This document shows positions 6,259 to 51,547 of a stretch of DNA of 64,000 bases, one piece after another. The translations under genes and the position numbers were made by a program. Origin of the DNA: Oscillospiraceae bacterium (GTDB lineage Bacteria > Bacillota > Clostridia > Oscillospirales > Ruminococcaceae); contig WRHO01000005.1 in NCBI GenBank assembly GCA_009783205.1, forward strand, positions 5,886 to 69,885, given 5' to 3'. The first letter of the stretch is position 1. Every line of letters starts with the position of its first letter. Under the pieces are notes generated by a model that was not told where the DNA came from, did no database searches, and saw only the letters and a program-made list of their open reading frames with translations.

Positions 6259-9200
6259 TTACGTACCCCACTCCGACAGAATATTCCCCGCGGCGTCACT
6301 CAATAAAATATCCATATCGAGCTTAAAATCGAAATAAATCTGCATACGTCCGAGTCCGAGGTCATGGGTTGCGAATTTAATAAAAATCTTCTCCTTCGCC
6401 CTAATAATCCTTACCGGAATCTGCCATTCAAACGCTTCGGTTTTATCGGCGGACAAATACTGTGAAATATATAAGCCCTTACAAGAAACGGAATCCTCGG
6501 TAGGATTGTGCAGTACAATACTGTATGGTGCTTGCGTGATTTCGACGCTACATATATGAAGCTCGTGTTCGCTACATTGGCTGGAACCCACCGGCGTTGC
6601 GAATTTGGAAATTAGGCGAATATAAGGCAATTGATACCCTAAGCTCGGCTCTGTAATTTCCCACGTATTGATAGGCCAACCGTGGTTAATATCCATGTAC
6701 TTTTTTGCGGGGGGGAAGCCCGATAAGGTATCGCGAACATAATCCCCTACCGCGAGGTCGGCGGCGGTCATCCATTGTCTGTGAGCGTTATACCCGCCGT
6801 CAACGGTATAATCTCCGTTCGGGCCGCCGGGCAGATATCCGGGTGCGGGGCCGGGGTTGGTACCGTCGACAACGCTCCATTTTGTTTCGGGCGAGTACCA
6901 ATCGTGGTAAATCGAGTTAAGGCTCTTTGACGCGCCGTAATTGTTCATATTGGTGAGATAAACGGTATTGAGAGGATTGACCCCGTGGATATAGTGCAGA
7001 TAATCCTCTGCGTCCGATTTATATTTTCCCGAGTCAATCTCATACTCTTCCCAGAAATAATACATTAAGCCCATTTCTGCTTTTGCTCTGTTTGAACCCC
7101 AAGGATAATCCTCAAGATGGGCTCGGTACCCGTCTTTCCCCAAGGTTGCTTTATAATTCCCGTCGGGCGCGTTAAAATGAGCAATTAACCCGTTTCTCCC
7201 CGGCCAGCCGTTTTTCAATTGTCCGACAAGCGTAGAGTTTGCATCGGGTTGTTTCATATATTGAAAATACATAAGATTTTGCGACGTGCGATAATGGTCC
7301 ATACCCCACCAATTATACAGCGGGAGATTTTGGTAATCGGTCTCAAAAATTGTAAGATACTTATTTCTGTCGCCGGTCATCTCGTACATATAAAGCGCGG
7401 CTTTCATGCGGTTCTCGCTTCGGCTTCCGACGCTGTCGTCCATAATTTCCTGTCCGCCCGCCGCTAATCCGTTCGAATTGTACGACGAATTATTGTTTTG
7501 GAACATTACGTTTTTATTATTCTCCGCCCAGGTGAAGGCTTTATCTGCCGCCGTTTTTAATTTATCGGCATACGCGGGGTCAAATTCCTCAAATATAACC
7601 GCGCCGAGCGCGAACGCTCTCGCCCCCGCATATGTTGCGGTAGTGTTCGGCGGGCCGTAATAGGTTCTGCCCGCAGCCGTCGACGGCGGCGAAGCGTGTT
7701 TCGCAATTTGACTCAAGCTCGGGTTGGCAATCCCCGCCGCATTTATGTTTGAAAGTGTCATAACGCTGAGCATTGAGCCGTTAAAATTCGATAAAGCCGC
7801 CGAATTTGGATAATTTGGCGGACGTTGTGCATCGCTTAATGCAAAATTGCCGTCGTTTTGCAATTTTAAAAGGTGGTCTAATCCCCATTTTGCCTCATCG
7901 ACAATATCCGGTATACCGTTATTCGACTCGGGAATGTTGTAATTGTCGCCGAAAACATCGGGGTTTTCGCGGTAACACTCGAGCATAGTCTCGACATATG
8001 CCGCCGTCCATGCGGTATATTTGTTATAATCGCCCGCATCGTACCACCCCCCGCTGACGTCGCGTTCCAACCCCGCGTTGTTCTGGTCAAAGAAGTATCG
8101 CGCCTGCGTATCCTGTCCCGCCCCCATATGGCTCGCAGAATCTGCCCAGGCTGCTCCGGCGTGCTGCGCCGTTTTAGCAATCCCCACGCGCTGATAATAA
8201 AACATACGGACGGCGTGTTTTAACACCTCATTATAAACGTCCTCCGCAATGTTAAACGAGAACGAGCGAACTTCCTTTTGAACGTCGAGAATATAATACC
8301 GCCCGGGTGTATTAACCGACGAAAAGTCGAACCACCATATTTCGTCGCCGGAATCTGCGTCCTCGGCAAATTTATGCACGGGCGCGCCGGTATAAACCAC
8401 CGTCTTTGTTTCCTCCGAAACAACCTGATAGCTTGTTCCCGGGGCAAAGGATTTGCTCGCGTCCGCGCCTTTTTTCGGGTTGCGTATTACTGCGGTTTTT
8501 GTAGAATCGGGTCTGTAACCGAATTGGTCTATAACGATAAAATCGGTTAATTCTTCGGTATCGCCCCCGACGTTTTTGGGATATATATGCGTCTGTTTAA
8601 TTCCGTCAATTGAAGTAACGGGTTTCATTGTATCGCCGTCACCAAATGCCGAATACAGTCCGGCAACCGCACCGATAAACGGCGCGTTATAGGTTATACC
8701 CACCTCGTTACCGATATAATCACCCGCGAGGTCGTAATAAAGTCCGTCGCTTCTTATAGGCCCGCCCACAAGCGCGCCGACAAGCGTTCGGTCGGCGGTT
8801 CTTGACGCACTGTTCCCCAATAAATCGGGTGCGCTTCCGTCCGACGGGCCGCCAAATGACGGTGCGGAGCCGCCGTTATACAAGCCCGAAAAATGCGGCT
8901 GTTTAGACGAGTTTGGCGCATATCCCGTAACGAGACAGAAGGTTTGCCCGTTATTTCCCGCGCCGGTAGGCCCGACGCCCATTATATAATCGGTTTGTCC
9001 CTTTGCCCAATTCTTATATGTCGTTTCGCCGGTATACTTATTATGAATAAGCCCCATAAACTGCACACCCGCGTTCAAAACCGAAGAACCCCATGCGCCG
9101 ATAAAGCGGAAGTTTGTGACCGGGGTTGAACTCGCATAGCCGTTAATGTCGGTTCTTATCCGCTGTATCCCCGTTGTACTCGAAGGGGTAGGACTGCTTG

Positions 9201-10860
9201 TGTTGCCGCGAAGTGCGTTGGCGATTTGCCATACGGAATCCCACCCTAAGGGCCAACCGTCCTGTCCCCCCGTGCCTACACCCGGGGTCGCAATAAAATC
9301 ATTTGCGTCCGTGCGGTAGGATTGTGTACCCGTGCCGAGGAAAAGCCATTCTGCCGCCGCCGCGCCGTAATCCTTCCACAAACCGTTTTGCCCGCCTTTT
9401 GAACCGTTACGGGGATAAAACCAACCGTCATATGCGTCGGCGCGGGCGAATTTAGGCCAATCAATTGCCGCTTTATAAAGTGCCTCCGCACATTTTAAGT
9501 CCTCCTCATCTCCAAAAAGATAATAGGTACTCGCAAGCGCGCCCGCCGCCCCCATAAGTATATTTGTCCCGGGATTTGCGGGGGTTATAAAATACGCGGT
9601 TCTTGTCGGGGTCGCGCCGTTGTTGTTTTTGTTCTCGGGCTGTCCCCAATAGTTATGGTCGCGACCGTCGCCCATTTGGAACATATACGCTTCAAGACTT
9701 CCGTCCGTTTTAAAAATTGTACATTTTCGTAAATACTCGGCAAATCGCTTAAGTATAATTTCTATATGCTCTTCCTGTCCCGTTTTTACAAATGCGTCCT
9801 CAAACTCTTTATACGCGAGAGCCATTGTCATGGTTGCATATGCAGATGTAACGCTAAACTTTATGTGGTCGCCGGCATCGTGGAAGCCGCCCGAAAAATC
9901 TTTTACACCATACGGGGTCGATACGGACGCGTCGCAGGTGTGACAGGCTCCGCGCCAATTGACGCCGCTTTCGTCCCCTACGTCCGCGCCGCACATATTC
10001 GCGTCGTAAAAGTATAAAAGGTATTGTAGAAGCCTTGCATAGTTAACCCCCGTTTCGGCGTTGTTGTCGGGGGTGGCGGTAACGGACGCCGCCGTTCCTT
10101 CTCCCGCACTGTTCAAAGCGCGAACGCGAAAGCTATAGCTCGTTCCGTTTGTCAAACCGGTGAATGTATGAGCGGTGCTTGTCGAAGCGGTAACCCACGT
10201 TGTTCCGCCGTCACGCGAAACCTGATACCCGGTAATTGCCGCGCCGCCGTTGCTCGAAGGCGCACTCCACGAAAGCGAAACCTGTCCGTTGCCCGGTGTA
10301 GCCGCAAAGCTTTGCGGCGCGCCGGGCGGCGTCGGCGTTGACGCAGATAAAAGCAGATATGCGCGGGTAATACGCATATCTATTGTGTCCGTGGTCGAAC
10401 CCCATTGTCCGTCGGCATCGAGAGACCACGAAAAAAATTCTATTTGAAGCCCGCCGTCGTCCTCCATCGCTTGAGCATAAGCGGGGTGTGCATCGAGCGG
10501 CAAAGAAAATGTATTCGCGCCCAAAGCCTCGGGCGATGCTTCGGAATAATCAAAATCGTCCCACTCGTTGTCGTTAAAGTCACCCAAAAGTGCTATACCG
10601 TACCCCCAATTTGTGGGGATTAACGGGAGACTCGATTCAATATATATACGTCCGTCCGATTGCAGAATAATCTCTCTCGTTAAGCCGGGAACATCGGTGT
10701 CGTTAAAAACGGGGAGAGACCACGCCACACTTGCTTCAACCGCCCAAGGCGGAATAACCGGAAGCTCGAAAACCTCATCTGCACCCGAGCCGAATTGTAT
10801 TGTGGGGATAACCCCGATAAGCATTGCTATCGTCAAAATAACCGATATCGTCTTTTTCAT
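6259..10860 (-). CDS. secreted multidomain glycoside hydrolase with two GH9 catalytic modules, Fn3 module and lamin-tail-like C-terminus
   Basis: Signal peptide, then Fn3 (GYQVSRDGGTTW...YSFRVRALNSAGEG). GH9 module 1: GGFHDAGDHIKF and YYDLAGDYIGNEVGITYNAPF. An Ig-like CelD_N-type segment (IDQFGYRPDSTKTAVI) precedes GH9 module 2 (GGWYDAGDYNKYT). Confidence 0.85.
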   Translation of the reverse strand: MKKTISVILTIAMLIGVIPTIQFGSGADEVFELPVIPPWAVEASVAWSLPVFNDTDVPGLTREIILQSDGRIYIESSLPLIPTNWGYGIALLGDFNDNEWDDFDYSEASPEALGANTFSLPLDAHPAYAQAMEDDGGLQIEFFSWSLDADGQWGSTTDTIDMRITRAYLLLSASTPTPPGAPQSFAATPGNGQVSLSWSAPSSNGGAAITGYQVSRDGGTTWVTASTSTAHTFTGLTNGTSYSFRVRALNSAGEGTAASVTATPDNNAETGVNYARLLQYLLYFYDANMCGADVGDESGVNWRGACHTCDASVSTPYGVKDFSGGFHDAGDHIKFSVTSAYATMTMALAYKEFEDAFVKTGQEEHIEIILKRFAEYLRKCTIFKTDGSLEAYMFQMGDGRDHNYWGQPENKNNNGATPTRTAYFITPANPGTNILMGAAGALASTYYLFGDEEDLKCAEALYKAAIDWPKFARADAYDGWFYPRNGSKGGQNGLWKDYGAAAAEWLFLGTGTQSYRTDANDFIATPGVGTGGQDGWPLGWDSVWQIANALRGNTSSPTPSSTTGIQRIRTDINGYASSTPVTNFRFIGAWGSSVLNAGVQFMGLIHNKYTGETTYKNWAKGQTDYIMGVGPTGAGNNGQTFCLVTGYAPNSSKQPHFSGLYNGGSAPSFGGPSDGSAPDLLGNSASRTADRTLVGALVGGPIRSDGLYYDLAGDYIGNEVGITYNAPFIGAVAGLYSAFGDGDTMKPVTSIDGIKQTHIYPKNVGGDTEELTDFIVIDQFGYRPDSTKTAVIRNPKKGADASKSFAPGTSYQVVSEETKTVVYTGAPVHKFAEDADSGDEIWWFDFSSVNTPGRYYILDVQKEVRSFSFNIAEDVYNEVLKHAVRMFYYQRVGIAKTAQHAGAAWADSASHMGAGQDTQARYFFDQNNAGLERDVSGGWYDAGDYNKYTAWTAAYVETMLECYRENPDVFGDNYNIPESNNGIPDIVDEAKWGLDHLLKLQNDGNFALSDAQRPPNYPNSAALSNFNGSMLSVMTLSNINAAGIANPSLSQIAKHASPPSTAAGRTYYGPPNTTATYAGARAFALGAVIFEEFDPAYADKLKTAADKAFTWAENNKNVMFQNNNSSYNSNGLAAGGQEIMDDSVGSRSENRMKAALYMYEMTGDRNKYLTIFETDYQNLPLYNWWGMDHYRTSQNLMYFQYMKQPDANSTLVGQLKNGWPGRNGLIAHFNAPDGNYKATLGKDGYRAHLEDYPWGSNRAKAEMGLMYYFWEEYEIDSGKYKSDAEDYLHYIHGVNPLNTVYLTNMNNYGASKSLNSIYHDWYSPETKWSVVDGTNPGPAPGYLPGGPNGDYTVDGGYNAHRQWMTAADLAVGDYVRDTLSGFPPAKKYMDINHGWPINTWEITEPSLGYQLPYIRLISKFATPVGSSQCSEHELHICSVEITQAPYSIVLHNPTEDSVSCKGLYISQYLSADKTEAFEWQIPVRIIRAKEKIFIKFATHDLGLGRMQIYFDFKLDMDILLSDAAGNILSEWGT

Positions 10861-43581: not shown

Positions 43582-43603
43582 GTGTATAATAGAGGTGACT
43601 TTT

Positions 43604-44233
43604 ATGGAATGGGTCAGTAATTGGTGGAATATGTTGGAGCTAACCGAACAAATCTTATTTTGTTTTGCGTTACCCTCATCTTTGATATTGATTATACAGG
43701 CGATTTTGATAATTGTCGGCGGCGCGGGCGACGGAGCGGACGGCGGGGGAGATTTTGACGGCGGCGATTTCGACGGGGGCGATTTTGACGGAGACGGCAC
43801 AGATGCATCCGGCTCGGGCGATTTCAGCGCGGCAAGTATGTTCACGTTACAGGGGATTTCGTCGTTTTTCTGTGTTTTCGGCTGGGTTTCGATTTGCACA
43901 TACCGTACCGGTCTTCCGTTAATGGCGGCGGTCATTATCGCGGCGGCATTGGGGTTTGCAACCATGTACGCGATAGCAAGGGTTATGATGTACCTGATGA
44001 AATTGGCACAATCGGGGACGCTCGATGTCAAAAAGCTTATAGGGAGTACGGGTACCGTCTACCTTCGAATACCGCCAAAGGGAAAGGGCAAGGGTAAGGT
44101 CACCGTCCAAACGAGCGAACGCCTCGTTGAGCTTGACGCAATAAGCGAGTCGGAAGAGGAAATTCCGAATAATACCGATATAAAGGTCATAGATATATTG
44201 GGTGAAAATGTTTTGGTTGTTGAGGCAATATAA
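43604..44233 (+). CDS. NfeD-like membrane protein with (GGDFD)x3 acidic loop
   Basis: Start moved to the ATG at 43604 (AGAGGTGA RBS). TM segments and a C-terminal OB-like GSTGTVYLRIPPKGKGKGKVTV...V.V. It sits immediately upstream of a flotillin gene, as NfeD partners do. Confidence 0.7.
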   Translation: MEWVSNWWNMLELTEQILFCFALPSSLILIIQAILIIVGGAGDGADGGGDFDGGDFDGGDFDGDGTDASGSGDFSAASMFTLQGISSFFCVFGWVSICTYRTGLPLMAAVIIAAALGFATMYAIARVMMYLMKLAQSGTLDVKKLIGSTGTVYLRIPPKGKGKGKVTVQTSERLVELDAISESEEEIPNNTDIKVIDILGENVLVVEAI

Positions 44234-44266
44234 CAATATTAATAAAACAGAGGGAGAAATTATCAA

Positions 44267-45646
44267 ATGGATGAAATTATACTCTACTTAATTATGGCGG
44301 GAGTAATTGTACTTTTTGTGTTGTTTATGTGGATTCTTTCCCGATACAGAAAATGTCCGTCGGACAAAATCCTCGTAAAGTACGGTAAGGTCGGAACGGA
44401 CAAAGACGGACAGGCGCGGAGCGCGAAATGTATTCACGGCGGCGCGTCCTTCATTTGGCCGGTGATACAGTCCTTTCAATATATGGACTTGACCCCGATT
44501 TCCATTAACGTAGACCTACGTAATGCGCTTTCAAAGCAGAATATCCGCGTTAATGTACCGTCGAGATTCACGGTGGGCATATCGGTTGAACCGGGTGTAA
44601 TGCAAAACGCCGCAGAACGTCTTTTGGGGCTTAAAATGAGCGAGATACAAGACCTCGCGAGCGATATTATCCTCGGACAGCTCCGCTTAGTAATCGCGAC
44701 AATGGAGATTGAGGAAATTAACTCCAACCGAGATAAGTTTTTGGCAGAGATTTCGAGCAATGTCGAGGGTGAGCTTAAGAAAATCGGACTTCGCCTTATC
44801 AATGTAAACGTAACCGATATATCCGACGCGGCGGGATACATTGAGGCTTTGGGAAAAGAAGCGGCGGCAAAGGCTATTAACGACGCTAAAAAGTCGGTTG
44901 CCGAAAAAGACCGCGACGGTGCAATCGGCGAAGCACACGCACAACGCGACCAAAGGGTACAGGTTTCGAGCGCGAACGCAACGGCAATTGAGGGCGAAAA
45001 CGCCGCAAAGGTTCAGGTTGCACAGTCGGAGGCGCAACGTCGCGAAAAAGAAGCGGAGGCGTTGAAAATAGCTACGACGGCAGAAGCGGTTCAAGCAGCT
45101 AAAGCTAAGGAAGAATCGTATATTGCACAAAAACAAGCCGAGCAGGGGCGTGCCGAACTCGAACGGGCAACGCAACAGGCGGATATCATTATTAAAGCCG
45201 AAATCGAAAGGCAACAGGCGGTTATAGAAGCACAGGCACAAGCCGAGGTTGTCAGAGAAAAGGCGAAGGGTGAAGCCGACGCGGTATTCGCAAGAATGGA
45301 GGCACAGGCGAACGGCGCGAAGGAAATCCTTGTTAAACAGGCGGACGGAATGAAAGAGCTTGTACAAGCGGCGGGAACCGCGGAAGACGCGGTGAAGCTT
45401 ATTGTAGCCGATAAGCTCGAGGAACTCATGCGGGTACAGGTTGAGGCAATTAAAAACATCAAAATCGACAAGGTTACCGTATGGGATTCGGGGAACGATA
45501 CAGAAGGGAAAAGCTCGACCGCCAATTTTATCAGCGGGATGATGAAGGCGGTTCCGCCTTTAGGTGAAGTGTTTAAACAAGCGGGAATGGATTTACCGAA
45601 ATTTCTCGGCGAAGAACAACATGAACAAACAGAAAACAAATTATAA
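44267..45646 (+). CDS. floT: flotillin (SPFH-domain) protein
   Basis: An N-terminal TM, an SPFH domain and a long Ala/Glu/Gln-rich coiled-coil (the EA repeat region). Confidence 0.85.
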   Translation: MDEIILYLIMAGVIVLFVLFMWILSRYRKCPSDKILVKYGKVGTDKDGQARSAKCIHGGASFIWPVIQSFQYMDLTPISINVDLRNALSKQNIRVNVPSRFTVGISVEPGVMQNAAERLLGLKMSEIQDLASDIILGQLRLVIATMEIEEINSNRDKFLAEISSNVEGELKKIGLRLINVNVTDISDAAGYIEALGKEAAAKAINDAKKSVAEKDRDGAIGEAHAQRDQRVQVSSANATAIEGENAAKVQVAQSEAQRREKEAEALKIATTAEAVQAAKAKEESYIAQKQAEQGRAELERATQQADIIIKAEIERQQAVIEAQAQAEVVREKAKGEADAVFARMEAQANGAKEILVKQADGMKELVQAAGTAEDAVKLIVADKLEELMRVQVEAIKNIKIDKVTVWDSGNDTEGKSSTANFISGMMKAVPPLGEVFKQAGMDLPKFLGEEQHEQTENKL

Positions 45647-46607: not shown

Positions 46608-46636
46608 TTGTGGGGGCGCGTAAAGCGTCCCCACAA
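46608..46636 (+). terminator. terminator hairpin
   Basis: TTGTGGGGGCGC-GTAAA-GCGTCCCCACAA, a 12-bp stem with one G-U. The T-rich tract follows a few nt later. Confidence 0.5.
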
Positions 46637-46778
46637 CATATTGTGTTTTAGTAGAATCCACAAAAATATTTAATTTTTTTTAAGATTTTTGTTTACTTTT
46701 TTAGTTTTTTGTGTTATTATTAATGTAATTAGATATAACTCAATATAACTAACGCGGGAGAAAGGTGCTTTATAAACC

Positions 46779-48422
46779 ATGGAAGATTCGAGAATTTACT
46801 TACTTTTAGAAGAAATTGCAAATGAAATCAAATCCATTGAAAAGAAGAATCGCGAGCTTTACACCTCTGCAATTGATGTAGAAGATGAATCGGTTTCGAT
46901 AAAGGTTCAAGCGGAATCCTTTGCAACGCTCAGAAGGATGCGCGGGCTTAAATCCGCAATGGAGGTGTTTAAGTCCGAGCTCGAAAAAAGCGGAATCTTA
47001 AAAGGTTCTTCGGGCGTTTATATAAGTAATGAACACGGTTCAATCGGGTTTGGCGATACAAAAAAGACACAACCCGAAGCCGTGAGCGAACCCGCGCCTA
47101 AAATAAACACATATGAGGAATTTGAATACACACCCGAAGCAAAGCCCGCAACACCTCCCGGTGACCTTATAGAAAATCCCGTTAATTTTTACGAGTTGAA
47201 TGCGGAACCCGATTTTAACCCCGACTTTAACTCCGATTTTAACGATGAAGAGAGCGAGCCGTTGCCCGATTATATCGCGGCGGAAATTGAGAATGTCGGC
47301 GATATAATTAACGAGCTGAATAAAAGCATGGACGAGGGAAACGACGACGGTATTTCGGACGACGATTTCGCCGATTTGGTGAAGGTGTCCCTCGACAGTC
47401 TTGAGTTTGAACCCGAATTTGAGTTTGGGGTTCAAAAGGAACAGGAGCAGGAGCCGAAAACTCAAGCACAGGTATTCCCGCAAATTCAACCCGATGCAGA
47501 AGCGACAAGGGAAGCCGTTAATATAACCGAGGATTCGATTGAGTCACTCGAGGCGGTAATAGACACCGTCGAAGGCGCGCTCGAGGCAATTGAAGAGGAT
47601 AATCAAAACGAGGTAGAAAACAGCATTGAGGCCGCGCTCGGACAGTTGGGCGAATTTGGGCCGCGTGAGCTTCCGCGCGAAGAAAAGCCGCCCGTAACGC
47701 CGCCGACATTTGAACCGGTTTCTACGCCGCAACCGCGCCCCGATGTAATCCCGATTATCCCCGAGCCACAGGCGGCCGCGCCGACGTTTGAGCCGGTTTC
47801 AACGCCACAGCCGCCCGTAACGCCGCCGACATTTGAACCCGTTTCAACGCCACAGCCGCGCCCCGAGACAATACCGGTTATACCCGAACCGACTATACCG
47901 GAATTTAATGTACCGGAGTTTAGCACGCCCGAATTTTCGGAGCCTGCGTTTTCGCCACCCGAGGTTCAAATTCCGGAAATTCCCGCGCTTGATGATATTT
48001 CAAAGTTGACCGATAACGCAACCGGCGTTTCCGAAGCGGAAGATGACGATTTTTCGGGATTCACCGTTTCCGTTCCGGAGGTCGGGATATACAACAACAG
48101 AGTACCCGCCGGATTTGTTATGTTCGGGAGGCGTGTTGAGGTTCGCGATTGGTCGGATATGCTCGTAAAGGTTTGTGAGATACTTATTTTGAAAAATCCT
48201 TATACCGTGGCACAGTTTGATAAATACCACGATTTGAACCCGAGCGGAAATATTTATTTCAGCTATAATCGAACCGATATAAAGGATTCTCCGAGGAAGC
48301 TTTCTAACGGGCTGTGGATTGAACTGACGCGCACCAACGATGATGTCGTAATGTTATGCAAAAAATTGCTCGAGCTTTGCGGTTACCCGAGAAGCGATAT
48401 CGAAATTGAGTTTAAGGATTAG
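46779..48422 (+). CDS. hypothetical protein: coiled N-terminus, acidic and Pro-rich repeat linker, conserved-looking C-terminal globular domain
   Basis: 547 aa. Contains three copies of PTFEPVSTPQP(R)P. The C-terminal ~110 aa (VPAGFVMFGRRVEVRDWSDMLVKV...) is not low-complexity. No family recognised. Confidence 0.65.
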   Translation: MEDSRIYLLLEEIANEIKSIEKKNRELYTSAIDVEDESVSIKVQAESFATLRRMRGLKSAMEVFKSELEKSGILKGSSGVYISNEHGSIGFGDTKKTQPEAVSEPAPKINTYEEFEYTPEAKPATPPGDLIENPVNFYELNAEPDFNPDFNSDFNDEESEPLPDYIAAEIENVGDIINELNKSMDEGNDDGISDDDFADLVKVSLDSLEFEPEFEFGVQKEQEQEPKTQAQVFPQIQPDAEATREAVNITEDSIESLEAVIDTVEGALEAIEEDNQNEVENSIEAALGQLGEFGPRELPREEKPPVTPPTFEPVSTPQPRPDVIPIIPEPQAAAPTFEPVSTPQPPVTPPTFEPVSTPQPRPETIPVIPEPTIPEFNVPEFSTPEFSEPAFSPPEVQIPEIPALDDISKLTDNATGVSEAEDDDFSGFTVSVPEVGIYNNRVPAGFVMFGRRVEVRDWSDMLVKVCEILILKNPYTVAQFDKYHDLNPSGNIYFSYNRTDIKDSPRKLSNGLWIELTRTNDDVVMLCKKLLELCGYPRSDIEIEFKD

Positions 48423-48465
48423 CCTACAAGAGCTGAGCAAATAAAAGCCAAAAAGAGGTGATAGT

Positions 48466-49950
48466 ATGAAATCGGCGAAAAGCTTATCTATCATAGGAAT
48501 AGATTTTGGTACAACCAATACCGCCGTAGTCCGCATTGTACAAGATGACGGCGGTCGAATTCATACCGAGTATTTGGGCGAAAACGGGGTCGGGCCTTTT
48601 GCATCCGTTATAGCTATTCCTAAGGAAGGCGGAAAGCTTGTTTTCGGGAGAGAGGTTCGCGAACGAAGGCTCGAGCTTTCCGATACGCATTACATTATAT
48701 CCTCGCTCAAGACATACATAGGCTCGGACAAGGAGATTGTCTCCGGAAAAAATCGCTATTCGGGCGAGGACGTCACCTGTGCTTTTTTAAAATATCTGAG
48801 AAAAAATATACAAAAGAACTACAAACTTGATATTAAAGACGCGGCTTTGGCTTTTCCTGTCGATTTTTCGGCAAAAGCGAGACGCGCACTTAAAAGAGCC
48901 GCCGAAAAAGCGGGAATACGCCTTTCGGGGTTTTCTGTGGAATCTACCGCGGCTTATATAGCAAATCGCAATAATGAAGAAATATACAAGGCGTATCGAA
49001 GGGTGATGATAATAGACTGGGGCGGGGGGACTCTCGATATAAGCGTATTGGATTTACAGGGGACGAGGGTTTATGAAAACTCGGTTTACGGCGAAAGAAT
49101 CGGCGGAGACGACATAGATTTGGAGATAGCATATCGTATGCACGCGCGATTGTCCGCAAATTATGAGGTCGATTTAAGCTTTGACGAGATGGACGCGGGG
49201 AATAAGGATAAACTCATTTCCGCCTGTGAAAAAGCTAAGATAGGCTTCTCGTTCAGCGAGGAGGACGCCGTTATTGCCCTCAAAAAATACGGGCCGTTCG
49301 GCGATGCAGAGGTTACCCTTTCTTATTCGACATTTAAAGATATAGTTATACCTATAATAAAATCAAAGGCGTTAAAAGCAATAAGCAACGCCATGAAATC
49401 CGCACAGGTAAGCGCGTCGGGAATGGATGCGGTAATAATGGCGGGTGGAAGCTCCGGACTTAAGCCTTTTGCACACGCGGTAGCAAATATATTCGGGAGC
49501 GACAAGATTATACTCCCCGAGAACACGGCTTGGTCGGTAGCGGCGGGCGTCGCGCTCTTGACCGCAACCGAAGGCGAATATATGCTCAACGACGATTTGG
49601 GGGTTTTAATGTCGGACGGAACGGTTTATCCCGTTTTCAAAAAGAATAACGATTGTGTAGGGAGTAAAGCGGGGCCTATTAATTTCTCACTTACCGAGGA
49701 CACCCAAAACGCTCACTTTATATTCACGAACAAGGACAACACAATTGTTTACGGAAAGCTTAATATAAACGCAAAAGGTTTTTTACAGGAAAATATGCAG
49801 CTCGCCGCAAAAATTGACCAAGACCAAACCGCAACCGTATTTGTCAGAAACCGATATATGGGCGAGGATTATAATAAGAAAATCGAGATTAACAGGTTGA
49901 CGTTCTATTATGATTTAGCCGGATTACCGGAGGAAGCAGATGAATTCTAA
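48466..49950 (+). CDS. Hsp70-family ATPase lacking a canonical substrate-binding lid
   Basis: Phosphate-1 IGIDFGTTNTAV, phosphate-2 IIDWGGGTLDISVL and adenosine motif VIMAGGSSGLKPF. Only ~110 aa follow the nucleotide-binding domain. Confidence 0.85.
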   Translation: MKSAKSLSIIGIDFGTTNTAVVRIVQDDGGRIHTEYLGENGVGPFASVIAIPKEGGKLVFGREVRERRLELSDTHYIISSLKTYIGSDKEIVSGKNRYSGEDVTCAFLKYLRKNIQKNYKLDIKDAALAFPVDFSAKARRALKRAAEKAGIRLSGFSVESTAAYIANRNNEEIYKAYRRVMIIDWGGGTLDISVLDLQGTRVYENSVYGERIGGDDIDLEIAYRMHARLSANYEVDLSFDEMDAGNKDKLISACEKAKIGFSFSEEDAVIALKKYGPFGDAEVTLSYSTFKDIVIPIIKSKALKAISNAMKSAQVSASGMDAVIMAGGSSGLKPFAHAVANIFGSDKIILPENTAWSVAAGVALLTATEGEYMLNDDLGVLMSDGTVYPVFKKNNDCVGSKAGPINFSLTEDTQNAHFIFTNKDNTIVYGKLNINAKGFLQENMQLAAKIDQDQTATVFVRNRYMGEDYNKKIEINRLTFYYDLAGLPEEADEF

Positions 49951-51454
49951 TATAACAATCGCGCCGAATATATATGTTCGCTCGTCCGTAAATATTCAAG
50001 ATGACGACGAATTTGTAAAAAAGGTTTACGGTCATAAAGCGTTAAATATTTTAAAGTCACAATTCTCGAAGAATTACTCGTCAAAGCTTACCCGCGCCCA
50101 AATAGAAGAGATGAAACAAAACGTCATATGTCGTCACGGGAAAACGCGGGAATACGCTTACGGAATAGCGTTACAGGACGGCGATAAAATTGTTTGGTCG
50201 TGCCGCTGTGAGCATACCGACTGTTACGCATATGATAAGTGTATGAGTCTCCCTAACGCAATGAAGATTAAAAGGGGCGGCTTATCGGCGGAGGAAACGG
50301 ACAAAGACGGCTACGGCTTTGAAAATGAACAAGACGATGTGTTTGAACCCCCGCACGTTTCGGTCGTGCTTCCGATTTTAAATGAAGTGCTTAAAGGTGA
50401 CGATATGCAGGTGAAAAACGTGATACTCGCCGAAAACTTCGGAGTCGGCCCCGAATTTGACAATAAAAGGGTTTTGGTAATCTGTGAAACCCCTTGTGAA
50501 TTGGGGTATCTCTCTACGCTTTTATATAAGAATAGTGTTAAACACAGAACGCTTAAGTCGGAGGGGTATACGCTCCACCGTCGAATTGCCGATGTTTTTT
50601 GGGATTATTGTAAGGACACAATAGACAGAGATGCGTTCTTTAATCGCTGCATTGTTCGTTTGGGCGAATCCGACGCGGAGCTTTCGGCGTTTTACAACGC
50701 TTTGTTCAAGCTGTGCGGCGATACCGAAAACGATGTTTTGCAAATATCTAAATTGGCGGCGGCTCTCGATGAAGCACCACAGTTGATTTCTAAATGCGTG
50801 TTGAATATGGACGGGCGGTCTGAAGTCTTTCCGGTCACCGTGTCCGTTCTCGAAACGCTTAACGTAAAAGACGAGTATGATGAGGTTTATCTTCTCGAGG
50901 GGGAAAAGGTATCGGTCATGTCGTCCGCTTTAAGCGACCTCTTCGGCTCTCCGCCCGTGATTATTCAGAAAGAAACAAAGGCGGGGTGGTTATTTAACAA
51001 AAGCCCGTTGGGAAGACCCTACAGAATTAGTCAGGATAATTATAAAGGGGGACGGGGACAGCATTGTCTCAATGTAGAACTCGGACTTTGGTGGGATATA
51101 GACGGGAAAAGCTTTTTAAACGACCATATGGGGGACGCAATCCGCCTACAGCTTTATATAGCCGAAAAAATCAAAACGGGCGATGAGCTGACCGTCGAAA
51201 AGAACACGGATACGGGCGGCTATTGGTTTTATCACAACGGAAACATTCTCGGCGAAATACCCTCCGCGCTCATAAGAGAGGTTAGGGCTATCGAAGGCTT
51301 CCCCGACGGGTTCATGGGGTTCGAGGGGATTTATGTACGCAATATCGTAACCTGTATTTCCGATAAAGATGATTCGACGCTTCCGGCGAGGTTTAAGGAT
51401 TCGCGGGTTTGGCTCGGCTTAGACATTACCGGTTATGCAAAAGTTCTAATTTAA
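49940..51454 (+). CDS. hypothetical protein with Cys/His cluster, translationally coupled to the Hsp70-like gene
   Basis: 504 aa. Overlaps the upstream gene by 11 nt, with GGAGG 6 nt before the ATG. Cys/His cluster CRHGKT...WSCRCEHTDCYAYDKC. No family recognised. Confidence 0.65.
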   Translation: MNSNITIAPNIYVRSSVNIQDDDEFVKKVYGHKALNILKSQFSKNYSSKLTRAQIEEMKQNVICRHGKTREYAYGIALQDGDKIVWSCRCEHTDCYAYDKCMSLPNAMKIKRGGLSAEETDKDGYGFENEQDDVFEPPHVSVVLPILNEVLKGDDMQVKNVILAENFGVGPEFDNKRVLVICETPCELGYLSTLLYKNSVKHRTLKSEGYTLHRRIADVFWDYCKDTIDRDAFFNRCIVRLGESDAELSAFYNALFKLCGDTENDVLQISKLAAALDEAPQLISKCVLNMDGRSEVFPVTVSVLETLNVKDEYDEVYLLEGEKVSVMSSALSDLFGSPPVIIQKETKAGWLFNKSPLGRPYRISQDNYKGGRGQHCLNVELGLWWDIDGKSFLNDHMGDAIRLQLYIAEKIKTGDELTVEKNTDTGGYWFYHNGNILGEIPSALIREVRAIEGFPDGFMGFEGIYVRNIVTCISDKDDSTLPARFKDSRVWLGLDITGYAKVLI

Positions 51455-51547
51455 TATTTTTTAAAATATATTTTATTGTTGATATTGACAACCTTGACAT
51501 TATATGTTATTATAAAATTGAATTTGTATAGGGGACGCTTTTTAATT

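Follow-up and report, generated by a model that had tools for sequence, protein, structure and literature searches.

The stretch of DNA analysed here (the window) comprises 64,000 nucleotides of contig WRHO01000005.1 of assembly GCA_009783205.1, from a bacterium of the family Oscillospiraceae, and contains three adjacent genes (the triad), the middle one of which encodes an Hsp70-type ATPase. We conclude that this triad very probably arose by reduction from genes one to four of a six-gene cassette, and that the genes for DrmA and DrmB (DrmAB), gene B of the cassette, and the motor of its UvrD helicase have been lost. The ancestry of the triad is well supported; its present function we only infer.

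All three open reading frames (ORFs) lie on the + strand, with gene 1 at 46779-48422 (547 aa), gene 2 at 48466-49950 (494 aa) and gene 3 at 49940-51454 (504 aa). A gap of 43 nt separates gene 1 from gene 2, and genes 2 and 3 overlap by 11 nt. An earlier note on this DNA, made from the sequence alone, had proposed a three-gene module with exactly these coordinates and spacings. The motifs it quoted, i.e., the Hsp70 signatures of gene 2, the CRHGKT cluster of gene 3 and three PTFEPVSTPQP repeats in gene 1, were all found in the translations.

Gene 3 Is a UvrD Derivative Without Its Motor

Gene 3 was identified by BLASTP as a motor-less derivative of an Hsp70-linked Zn-UvrD helicase. The comparison was made with P0025, a 774-aa reference helicase that carries the Pfam domains UvrD-helicase and UvrD_C. 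Residues 1-112 of gene 3 match the N-terminus of P0025 (37% identity, 1e-16), and residues 175-504 match positions 432-761 (25% identity, 2e-24). Between the matching segments, approximately 260 aa of P0025 and of a second reference protein, P0026, are replaced in gene 3 by a short acidic linker. The stretch of P0025 that is absent from gene 3 holds Walker A (GTGKT), Walker B (DEIQD) and motif III, and motifs V (TIHKAKGSEF) and VI (YVGFTRAK) are likewise gone. None of these five motifs was found in the eight gene 3 members of the triad clade when searched with regular expressions, nor in 18 aligned sequences when inspected by eye. The superfamily 1A (SF1A) helicase motifs are present in the DrmAB-linked UvrD relatives: motifs III, V and VI occur in all of them, and Walker A and B are readable save for a few misses of the regular expressions. 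The earlier note had been loosely reminded of an inactivated UvrD-like helicase domain by the middle of this protein, and both the BLASTP match to P0025 and the lack of every helicase motif bear this out.

Close relatives of gene 3 are rare. Only about 24 were found among 5.8 billion proteins, and all the named ones come from metagenome-assembled genomes (MAGs) of termite-gut Oscillospiraceae. The same search returned two distant matches, both of them full UvrD helicases.

Four parts can be distinguished in the protein. The N-terminal module with SNI..SNIY and Cys residues (aa 1-112; 49940-50275, + strand) includes the CRHGKT...WSCRCEHTDCYAYDKC cluster at residues 64-101. C64, C90, C95 and C101 are conserved in gene 3 of the triads and in the full-length UvrD proteins of the cassettes, and judging from this conserved pattern, the module probably binds zinc; confidence of the AlphaFold2 (AF2) model is low in this region. 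It is followed by a variable acidic linker (aa 113-174; 50276-50461, + strand; predicted local distance difference test score, pLDDT, <50), which falls into an alignment gap and stands in place of the 1A/1B half of UvrD. Next comes a relic 2A/2B region with the motif IADVFWDYC (aa 175-335; 50462-50944, + strand; pLDDT 80-90). It aligns to positions 432-600 of P0025, the part that carries the Pfam UvrD_C match. The conserved C-terminal domain (aa 336-504; 50945-51451, + strand) is marked by the invariant residues G382, D386, D388, Q404, Y406, E409, H432 and G434. This domain of approximately 170 aa is common to all cassette UvrD proteins; its fold family was not matched, and its profile found no relative in the PDB or Pfam.

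The AF2 model of the gene 3 core (residues 160-504) is confident. A Foldseek search with the model against the PDB and BFVD gave nothing at E<=1e-3, and there were weak matches of the relic 2A/2B region to RecA-like domains of superfamily 1 helicases. Whole gene 3 has no Pfam or PADLOC match. More broadly, nothing usable was obtained with whole gene 1 or gene 3 from PADLOC, NCBIfam, PHROGs or Pfam, and single-sequence searches of the PDB with either protein gave chance-level matches only.

Gene 3 shares with the Hsp70-linked Zn-UvrD family, for which P0025, P0026 and the UvrD proteins of loci L007 and L008 served as references, the N-terminal module, the IADVFWDYC region, the C-terminal domain and the slot directly after the Hsp70-like gene. 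By alignment, gene 3 retains exactly the family-specific, non-motor part of the helicase.

A Six-Gene Cassette with DrmA and DrmB Is the Probable Parent

The constant context of the distant gene 3 relatives, and of those relatives of gene 2 that are 42-55% identical to it, is a collinear cassette in the order A, B, Hsp70-like, Zn-UvrD, DrmA (a 1040-aa helicase) and DrmB (600 aa). When the cassette of L008 was searched with PADLOC, DrmA was recognised at 1.5e-218 and DrmB at 1.7e-74. Cassette DrmB carries the Pfam MZB/DUF1998 domain, and the full-length cassette UvrD proteins matched the GajB profiles of PADLOC with a best value of 2.2e-25. Gene A is homologous to gene 1 in both its N- and its C-terminal domain. 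Gene B encodes a coiled-coil protein and has no counterpart in the window.

The full cassette was found in approximately 20 distinct loci. Its hosts, among them gut anaerobes, include Clostridium spp. (including sp. D43t1), the cultured strains Ruminococcus flavefaciens 007c and MA2007, and Ruminiclostridium, together with a Bacteroides bin, a Dysgonamonadaceae bin and one termite Oscillospiraceae MAG. A type I restriction-modification (R-M) system, a PLD-helicase and a relaxase were observed as neighbours. The same two partner families flank the Hsp70 gene in more than 30 loci from several phyla.

Individual cassettes show additional features. In the two R. flavefaciens strains only, a gene for a C5 cytosine DNA methylase (L021:14238-15536; 2.4e-57) directly follows DrmB. 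Because it is confined to this species, the methylase was rejected as a fixed component of the cassette. In the full cassette of the termite Oscillospiraceae MAG, the gene after DrmB (L034:13287-14180) combines DUF4357 with a second copy of the gene A C-terminal domain. Signs of damage are seen in some full cassettes: one locus (L032:4250-5962) has a split Hsp70 gene, UvrD is distributed over two ORFs in two others (L033:2597-4905 and L042:8474-10807), and DrmA is only partly matched in a fourth (L028:8153-12504). These could be frameshifts or assembly errors.

In the literature we found no paper that describes the cassette, nor one that reports Hsp70 with DrmA/DrmB or Hsp70 with UvrD in defence. 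A survey of the YprA family mentions many uncharacterised DISARM-like classes and never mentions Hsp70. The cassette is an undescribed, DISARM-related and Hsp70-containing gene set.

Gene 2 Encodes a Lid-Less Hsp70-Type ATPase

The product of gene 2 matches Pfam HSP70 (1.5e-32) over residues 92-367 only, i.e., in the nucleotide-binding domain (NBD) alone, and DnaK structures in the PDB also match only this domain (2e-26). The Hsp70 signatures read IGIDFGTTNTAV (residues 10-21), IIDWGGGTLDISVL and VIMAGGSSGLKPF. Within the NBD (aa 1-367; 48466-49566, + strand), an alignment of 21 family members showed that D13, K82, E159, D184, G186-G188, T189, D191 and G327-S329 are invariant; we take these to correspond to D8, K70, E171, D194, T199 and D201 of DnaK. 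Since the catalytic and nucleotide-binding residues are invariant, gene 2 is expected from its sequence to be an active ATPase.

The NBD is followed by a β-sandwich of nine strands (aa ~373-483; 49582-49914, + strand) that resembles the β subdomain of the Hsp70 substrate-binding domain (SBDβ). A profile search of this tail against the PDB gave no DnaK match. Alignment with hhalign to the substrate-binding domain of E. coli DnaK gave a probability of 3.5%, and a deeper profile of 120 sequences gave 1.4% against four Hsp70 substrate-binding domains. The alignments were co-linear and not significant, and we therefore turned to the AF2 model and Foldseek. The model has a pLDDT of 87.8 (~90 in the tail) and a predicted TM-score (pTM) of 0.84. 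Over its full length it matched lid-truncated DnaK (5obu, and 7kru/7krv at TMq 0.78-0.79). The root-mean-square deviation to the lid-deleted DnaK constructs was ~4 Å over ~524 columns at ~20% identity, and the structural alignments to Hsp70 structures consisting of NBD and SBDβ covered 494-525 columns. Because the model aligns over its whole length to such structures, the tail is best interpreted as an SBDβ peptide clamp; on the strength of the model, only the helical lid (SBDα) appears to be gone, and the protein stops 11 residues past the last β strand. The earlier note had correctly described a β-rich tail of about 110 aa and a missing lid; its view of this tail as something other than an Hsp70 substrate-binding part does not hold, as structural comparison identifies it as SBDβ and not as a foreign appendage.

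Gene 2 is 72-91% identical across the triad clade, with 75-91% among the clade proteins listed in one comparison, and 42-55% identical, over its full length, to the Hsp70 proteins of the full cassettes. Its NCBIfam scores are 124 bits for DnaK (cut-off 648-822), 112 bits for HscA (cut-off 709) and 62.5 bits for PRK11678, i.e., YegD (cut-off 331). The identification of gene 2 as a canonical DnaK, HscA or YegD was rejected because these scores are far below the cut-offs, co-chaperones are missing and the partners are dedicated ones. The earlier note's reading of gene 2, an Hsp70-type ATPase that lacks the lid and differs from the housekeeping chaperone, is therefore upheld: no dnaJ or grpE is nearby, and neither a J-domain HPD motif nor a second Hsp70 was found anywhere in the 64 kb window.

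Gene 1 Combines a Helical N-Terminus, an Acidic Linker and a SeqA-C-Like Domain

Gene 1 was recognised by BLASTP as a homolog of cassette gene A. Its C-terminal domain matches gene A of L007 at 2e-25 and its N-terminus at 5e-7; the corresponding values for L008 are 4e-13 and 1e-6, and L009 was matched at 2e-4. The 18 homologs of gene 1, which are 314-696 aa long, all belong to one Oscillospiraceae clade.

The N-terminal helical domain (aa 1-85; 46779-47033, + strand) is conserved in the triad clade and in gene A of L007, L008 and L009. Searches of the PDB and Pfam with this domain returned only generic coiled coils and helices. A J-domain was considered and rejected, as the HPD motif is absent. 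The following disordered linker (aa 86-420; 47034-48038, + strand) is acidic and proline-rich, with 23% D+E, 15% P and a net charge of -61, in agreement with the D/E-rich region of the earlier note. It contains three exact PTFEPVSTPQP repeats, which begin at residues 309, 335 and 350 (47703-47735, 47781-47813 and 47826-47858, + strand). Both the length and the sequence of this 335-aa linker vary extremely among orthologs, and the linkers of full-cassette gene A proteins are near neutral compared to the -61 of gene 1.

The C-terminal domain (aa 421-547, 127 aa; 48039-48419, + strand) is 63-83% identical within the triad clade. In a search of 1.84 billion proteins with its profile, 550 cluster representatives were detected at E<=1e-3. 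In this family the domain is usually located at the C-terminus, with up to seven copies in some proteins, and it co-occurs with HSDR_N, Mrr_N, DUF4357, DUF4391 and HARE-HTH, modules that are typical of restriction enzymes. In the family members P0242 and P0277, Pfam SeqA_C overlaps the same stretch (9.4e-9 and 1.4e-17, respectively). When the broadened profile was compared with the PDB, SeqA C-domains accounted for four of the eight top matches, including the best one, at E-values of 0.035-0.54. Based on the context of the family, the overlap with SeqA_C and the ranking of the PDB matches, we call the domain SeqA-C-like; the link from gene 1 to SeqA is partly transitive, via family members. 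With moderate confidence, we regard it as a SeqA-C-like and probably DNA-binding domain. Hence, the two partners of the Hsp70-like ATPase, which the earlier note had called family-less, both have families: gene 3 belongs to the Hsp70-linked Zn-UvrD family, and the C-terminal domain of gene 1 to a family of 550 representatives that grades into SeqA_C.

Other proteins of this type begin differently. A 4-kb JGI contig (3300038395; L043) encodes a gene 1 ortholog, P0043, of 685 aa in one uninterrupted ORF (L043:540-2597). In P0043 the helical N-terminal domain is replaced by a near-complete ArdA antirestriction domain (PF07275, 8.4e-16). The next gene on this contig (2622-4031) is 83% identical to gene 2. 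Gene A of the Ruminococcus type is ~1160 aa long and starts with a HIRAN domain (7.4e-12), as seen in R. flavefaciens 007c (L021:267-3758) and in L022, L025, L026, L028, L029 and L035. As the N-terminus of gene A can be a helix, HIRAN or ArdA while the C-terminal domain is constant, the N-terminal module is exchangeable.

The Triad Occupies a Conserved Locus and Is under Purifying Selection

The triad, i.e., A, Hsp70 and the dead UvrD in the same order, was found in 11 loci including the window, all of them derived from MAGs, and all named hosts are termite-gut Oscillospiraceae. The three genes are thus syntenic in every relative found (10 further loci), which answers the question of co-occurrence raised by the earlier note, and in each locus with full coverage none of the three ORFs is interrupted. 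Searches by tblastn with DrmA and DrmB of L008 detected neither in the window nor in the flanks of any triad locus, where 64 kb of the source genome and 8-10 kb of flanking sequence in the relatives were covered.

The surroundings of the triad are conserved as well. Wherever the contig reaches far enough, the same genes lie downstream, namely (ABC ATPases), solute-binding protein, permease, permease and NHL. Upstream, most loci have NfeD, Band7 and (lipoprotein), and L003 instead has rnpA/yidC/jag/CoatF/PIN7. Neighbouring genes are 45-91% identical between loci. Two genes for ABC ATPases lie between gene 3 and the solute-binding protein gene in L001 (9591-11327) and L003 (9619-11341), and are absent in the window and in L039; one of these ABC ATPase genes has a SpoVT/AbrB (MazE_antitoxin) domain.

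In comparison with the closest relative, L039, the ratio of nonsynonymous to synonymous substitution rates (dN/dS) is 0.03 for gene 2, 0.06 for gene 3 and 0.02-0.04 for four neighbouring genes, approximate values, given near-saturated synonymous sites, that still lie far below 1. The triad is under purifying selection as strong as that on its housekeeping neighbours.

In an unrooted neighbour-joining tree of the Hsp70 proteins, the triad clade is monophyletic and nested among the full cassettes. A second, separate branch also lacks DrmAB. It consists of L009:8799-13775 and L040:5582-10774, in which the order is A, B' (100-263 aa), Hsp70 and a UvrD-like gene. The UvrD-like proteins of this branch have kept Walker A and B and have lost motifs III, V and VI. 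Both modules are found in housekeeping surroundings, and the one in L040 is located directly upstream of dnaX-ybaB-comEC-recR. Considering the triad clade and this branch, A-(B)-Hsp70-U has been kept without DrmAB at least twice.

With the cassette UvrD as query, tblastn found only generic UvrD cores in the PLSDB plasmids and no match in the INPHARED phages, and a scan of IMG/VR gave no relative. The earlier note had suggested a link to conflict systems and a possible location in defence islands. The first part stands for the ancestry, since the parent cassette contains DrmA and DrmB and is found near R-M genes or a relaxase. The second part fails, as the triad itself lies outside any defence island, at one fixed core locus between NfeD-Band7 and a sugar ABC transporter. 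Since the triad has lost the helicase motors of its defence-type ancestors, any present role in defence is hypothetical.

Boundaries of the Triad and Its Surroundings in the Window

A terminator-like hairpin at the end of the upstream lipoprotein gene (46608-46636, + strand) has a 12-bp stem with eight G-C pairs and is followed by a T-rich tail. A promoter-like site for the triad, TTTACT-17-TATTAT with a TG extension, was found in a consensus scan at 46692-46720 (+ strand) and is a pattern match only. The ribosome-binding site of gene 1, GGGAGAAAGG, is situated 8 nt ahead of the ATG at 46779. Shine-Dalgarno-like sites were also found for gene 2 (AGAGGTGA) and for gene 3 (GGAGGA, within the 3' end of gene 2), and the tight coupling of genes 2 and 3 recurs in the triad loci L003 and L039. 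A strong promoter-like site (TTGACA-17-TATTAT, 51485-51513, + strand; 11/12 match) just past the stop codon of gene 3 belongs to the ABC-transporter genes that follow and marks the 3' boundary of the triad. With the hairpin upstream and this site downstream, the triad has the outline of the self-contained unit that the earlier note had envisaged.

Elsewhere the window consists of ordinary core chromosome from a spore-forming, cellulolytic member of the Clostridia, with ffh, rpsP, dnaG, htpG, gerAC and a GH9 cellulase gene. Neither mobile-element genes nor R-M genes were found near the triad in the window. Directly upstream of the triad lies the NfeD-Band7 pair (43595-45646, + strand), which encodes an NfeD-like protein with a GGDFD-repeat loop and a 459-aa Band7/flotillin-like protein. 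Most relatives have this pair in synteny with the triad, with Band7 87-91% identical. The GH9 cellulase (6259-10860, - strand; 1533 aa, with fn3 and CelD_N domains) occupies the sole G+C-rich part of the window (0.50-0.52 vs. ~0.43 elsewhere).

Proposed Mechanism and Alternative Explanations

We propose that the triad was probably exapted from the sensing or regulatory half of an immune cassette to a stand-alone, DNA-associated cellular role, and that it has probably ceased to be a classical mobile defence system. We favour exaptation over a system that still acts in classical defence because no effector can be recognised in the triad, its core locus is fixed and it evolves like its housekeeping neighbours. 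A continued role in conflict is quite possible.

Under the exaptation proposal, the three proteins would work as one complex with the Hsp70-like ATPase as its only remaining NTPase and energy source. Gene 3 would be a non-enzymatic scaffold, in which the kept helicase parts presumably contact Hsp70 and either DNA or a partner. Gene 1 would anchor the complex to DNA via the SeqA-C-like domain on its long acidic tether. The lid-less SBDβ may clamp and release a partner segment in extended form, for example the linker of gene 1 or gene 3, in an ATP-dependent cycle, and this clamping cycle would act as a switch for complex formation between gene 1 and gene 3 or for the contact of that complex with DNA. 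Spelled out in this way, exaptation together with its mechanism is tentative and may well turn out to be wrong; when ancestry and reduction are blended with mechanism and exaptation, we lean slightly towards the reading as a whole.

Several points weigh against this proposal. The three-protein complex and the clamping of a linker are steps that we infer. The SBDβ assignment comes from an AlphaFold model, with the sequence profiles below significance, the fold of gene 3 is likewise taken from such a model, and the direct PDB matches of the gene 1 C-terminal domain to SeqA are marginal (E 0.035-0.54). By our own reading, the SeqA residues that contact hemimethylated GATC appear to be lost from gene 1. 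Synonymous divergence is near saturation (pS ~0.68), which makes the dN/dS values approximate, and the Hsp70 tree has neither a root nor support values. As the search for DrmAB extended over the 64 kb window and the 8-10 kb flanks, DrmAB could be encoded elsewhere in the triad genomes and act in trans. Finally, the gene 1 ortholog with an ArdA domain (L043) points to continued restriction-type conflict rather than to pure housekeeping.

In the most probable of the alternatives, the triad would still act on its own against phages or plasmids. In such a system, Hsp70 would sense a phage protein or a DNA state via SBDβ and the DNA-binding domain of gene 1, and growth arrest or another effect would be exerted by an effector that is not recognisable from sequence, e.g., the C-terminal domain of gene 3. 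The idea draws on the ancestral DrmAB cassette, which adjoins type I R-M genes, a PLD-helicase or a relaxase, on the co-occurrence of the gene 1 C-domain family with restriction-enzyme modules, on the hypervariable linker of gene 1 and on the ArdA fusion in one ortholog. Moreover, Hsp70-like proteins occur in other predicted defence systems, e.g., CnuD of CoCoNuT (PMC11090510). However, none of the three genes has a PADLOC match, and the searches revealed no domain of a nuclease, helicase, toxin or membrane effector in them. The triad is not patchy and occupies one and the same core locus in each of the 11 cases, its substitution rates resemble those of its housekeeping neighbours, and it is absent from the phage, plasmid and viral-contig collections. 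We therefore consider an autonomous anti-phage system unlikely.

Another explanation gives the triad a role in the control or relief of restriction within its own cell. Here, methylation would be read by the SeqA-C-like domain, the acidic linker, or the ArdA domain in one ortholog, would be a DNA mimic that blocks R-M or helicase-type enzymes, and the Hsp70 ATPase would expose or withdraw this mimic. The net charge of -61 in the gene 1 linker, compared to near-neutral linkers in gene A of the full cassettes, is consistent with such a role, as are the ArdA domain in place of the N-terminal helix in L043, the SeqA-C-like affinity of the C-terminal domain and the co-occurrence of its family with HSDR_N and Mrr_N. 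These arguments, however, amount to composition and a single fusion on a 4-kb metagenomic contig; no R-M genes are found near the triad in the window, and linkers rich in acidic residues and proline are widespread, often without a specific function. Restriction control is thus improbable as an explanation of the triad, although the ArdA domain in L043 and the strongly acidic linker keep DNA mimicry alive as an idea. The boldest version of our own proposal takes it up: an exapted, Hsp70-powered DNA switch, in which gene 1 would read methylation and an acidic or ArdA mimic, gated by the lid-less Hsp70, would block restriction enzymes. We regard this version as a long shot. If true, chaperone-gated DNA mimicry would be a new kind of restriction alleviation or self-immunity control.

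The large deletions, which removed gene B, DrmAB, the UvrD 1A half and all helicase motifs, would also suit a decaying and functionless remnant of a defence cassette. Decay is very improbable and largely refuted by the selection data: dN/dS is 0.03-0.06, all three ORFs are intact in each covering locus, the Hsp70 proteins of the clade share 72-91% identity and keep every catalytic residue invariant, and the AF2 models of gene 2 and of the gene 3 core are confident. The least credible possibility makes gene 2 a common Hsp70 paralog, of the HscC/YegD kind, with unrelated neighbours: the gene product is truncated, has no dnaJ or grpE nearby, as is the case for YegD, and has a weak PRK11678 match (62.5 bits), but this score is far below the 331-bit cut-off and the conserved synteny of three to six genes, with the same partner families in more than 30 loci from several phyla, refutes it.

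Significance of the Parent Cassette and the Triad

The parent cassette is an unreported DrmA/DrmB class, in which an Hsp70-type ATPase, a UvrD protein with a Zn module and a SeqA-C-like/HIRAN protein replace the accessory genes of DISARM. If our reading is true, it would be a new Hsp70-dependent class of DISARM-related immunity. The use of a chaperone-type ATPase for sensing invaders or avoiding self-damage would be a new principle in DISARM-type systems. The parent cassette is directly testable, as the cultured strains R. flavefaciens 007c and MA2007 and Clostridium sp. D43t1 carry the full set.

The reduced forms provide a natural dissection of the cassette. Two lineages independently kept A-Hsp70-UvrD without DrmAB, and one of them then deleted the helicase engine under strong selection. 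Independent retention and strong selection argue that the Hsp70 module has a function of its own. The triad would thus be a rare, well-documented case of an immune module that turned into a fixed core gene set.

Comparison with Known Systems

The triad is neither a housekeeping DnaK, HscC or YegD nor a DISARM, Gabija or CoCoNuT system. The three defence systems are set apart because the triad has no DrmA, DrmB, DrmC or methylase, no GajA, no helicase activity to be expected of gene 3, and no McrBC.

Like DnaK and its lid-truncated forms (5obu, 7kru), gene 2 consists of NBD, linker and SBDβ with conserved catalytic residues; unlike DnaK, it has no SBDα lid, and no J-protein or GrpE is encoded in the operon or the window. 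Gene 1 differs from SeqA in that it lacks the N-terminal oligomerisation domain, and its C-domain family is found in R-M and defence contexts, not in loci of oriC control.

In CoCoNuT systems, CnuD and Hsp70-McrB fusions are Hsp70-like proteins with NBD and SBD that occur in predicted immune operons beside coiled-coil proteins (PMC11090510). They are tied to the McrBC GTPase/nuclease, with degenerate Walker-A-like motifs and predicted RNA binding (eLife 2024, PMC11090510). In contrast, the catalytic residues of gene 2 are invariant and the partners of the cassette Hsp70 proteins are UvrD and DrmAB. No McrBC-type Pfam matches were found in the window or in the cassette loci. As for Gabija, the full-length cassette UvrD resembles GajB, but no GajA (the ATPase-TOPRIM nuclease) appears in any locus table, and gene 3 has neither a PADLOC match nor helicase motifs.

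The resemblance to DISARM lies in the end of the cassette, which consists of DrmA and DrmB (MZB/DUF1998), in the R-M genes that adjoin some cassette loci, and in the C5 methylase after DrmB in R. flavefaciens, as in class 2 DISARM (DrmMII). The differences are that this methylase is restricted to two R. flavefaciens loci, that A-B-Hsp70-UvrD stand where DISARM has DrmD/DrmE, and that the six cassette proteins of L008 gave no PADLOC match to DrmC, a result that covers these six proteins only, no PLD gene having been looked for in the flanks. DrmA, DrmB, DrmC and a methylase are all absent from the window.

ARMADA type II combines a YprA-like helicase with ArmD, a GajB-like UvrD helicase, and neither the paper nor its supplements mention Hsp70 (bioRxiv 10.1101/2025.09.15.676423). 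ARMADA has a BrxHII-like helicase, a PglX methylase and a RelE-like domain on its UvrD, and it lacks Hsp70, gene A and gene B. What the cassette and ARMADA type II have in common is the pairing of a helicase of the YprA/DrmA family with a UvrD-family helicase that bears an extra N-terminal module.

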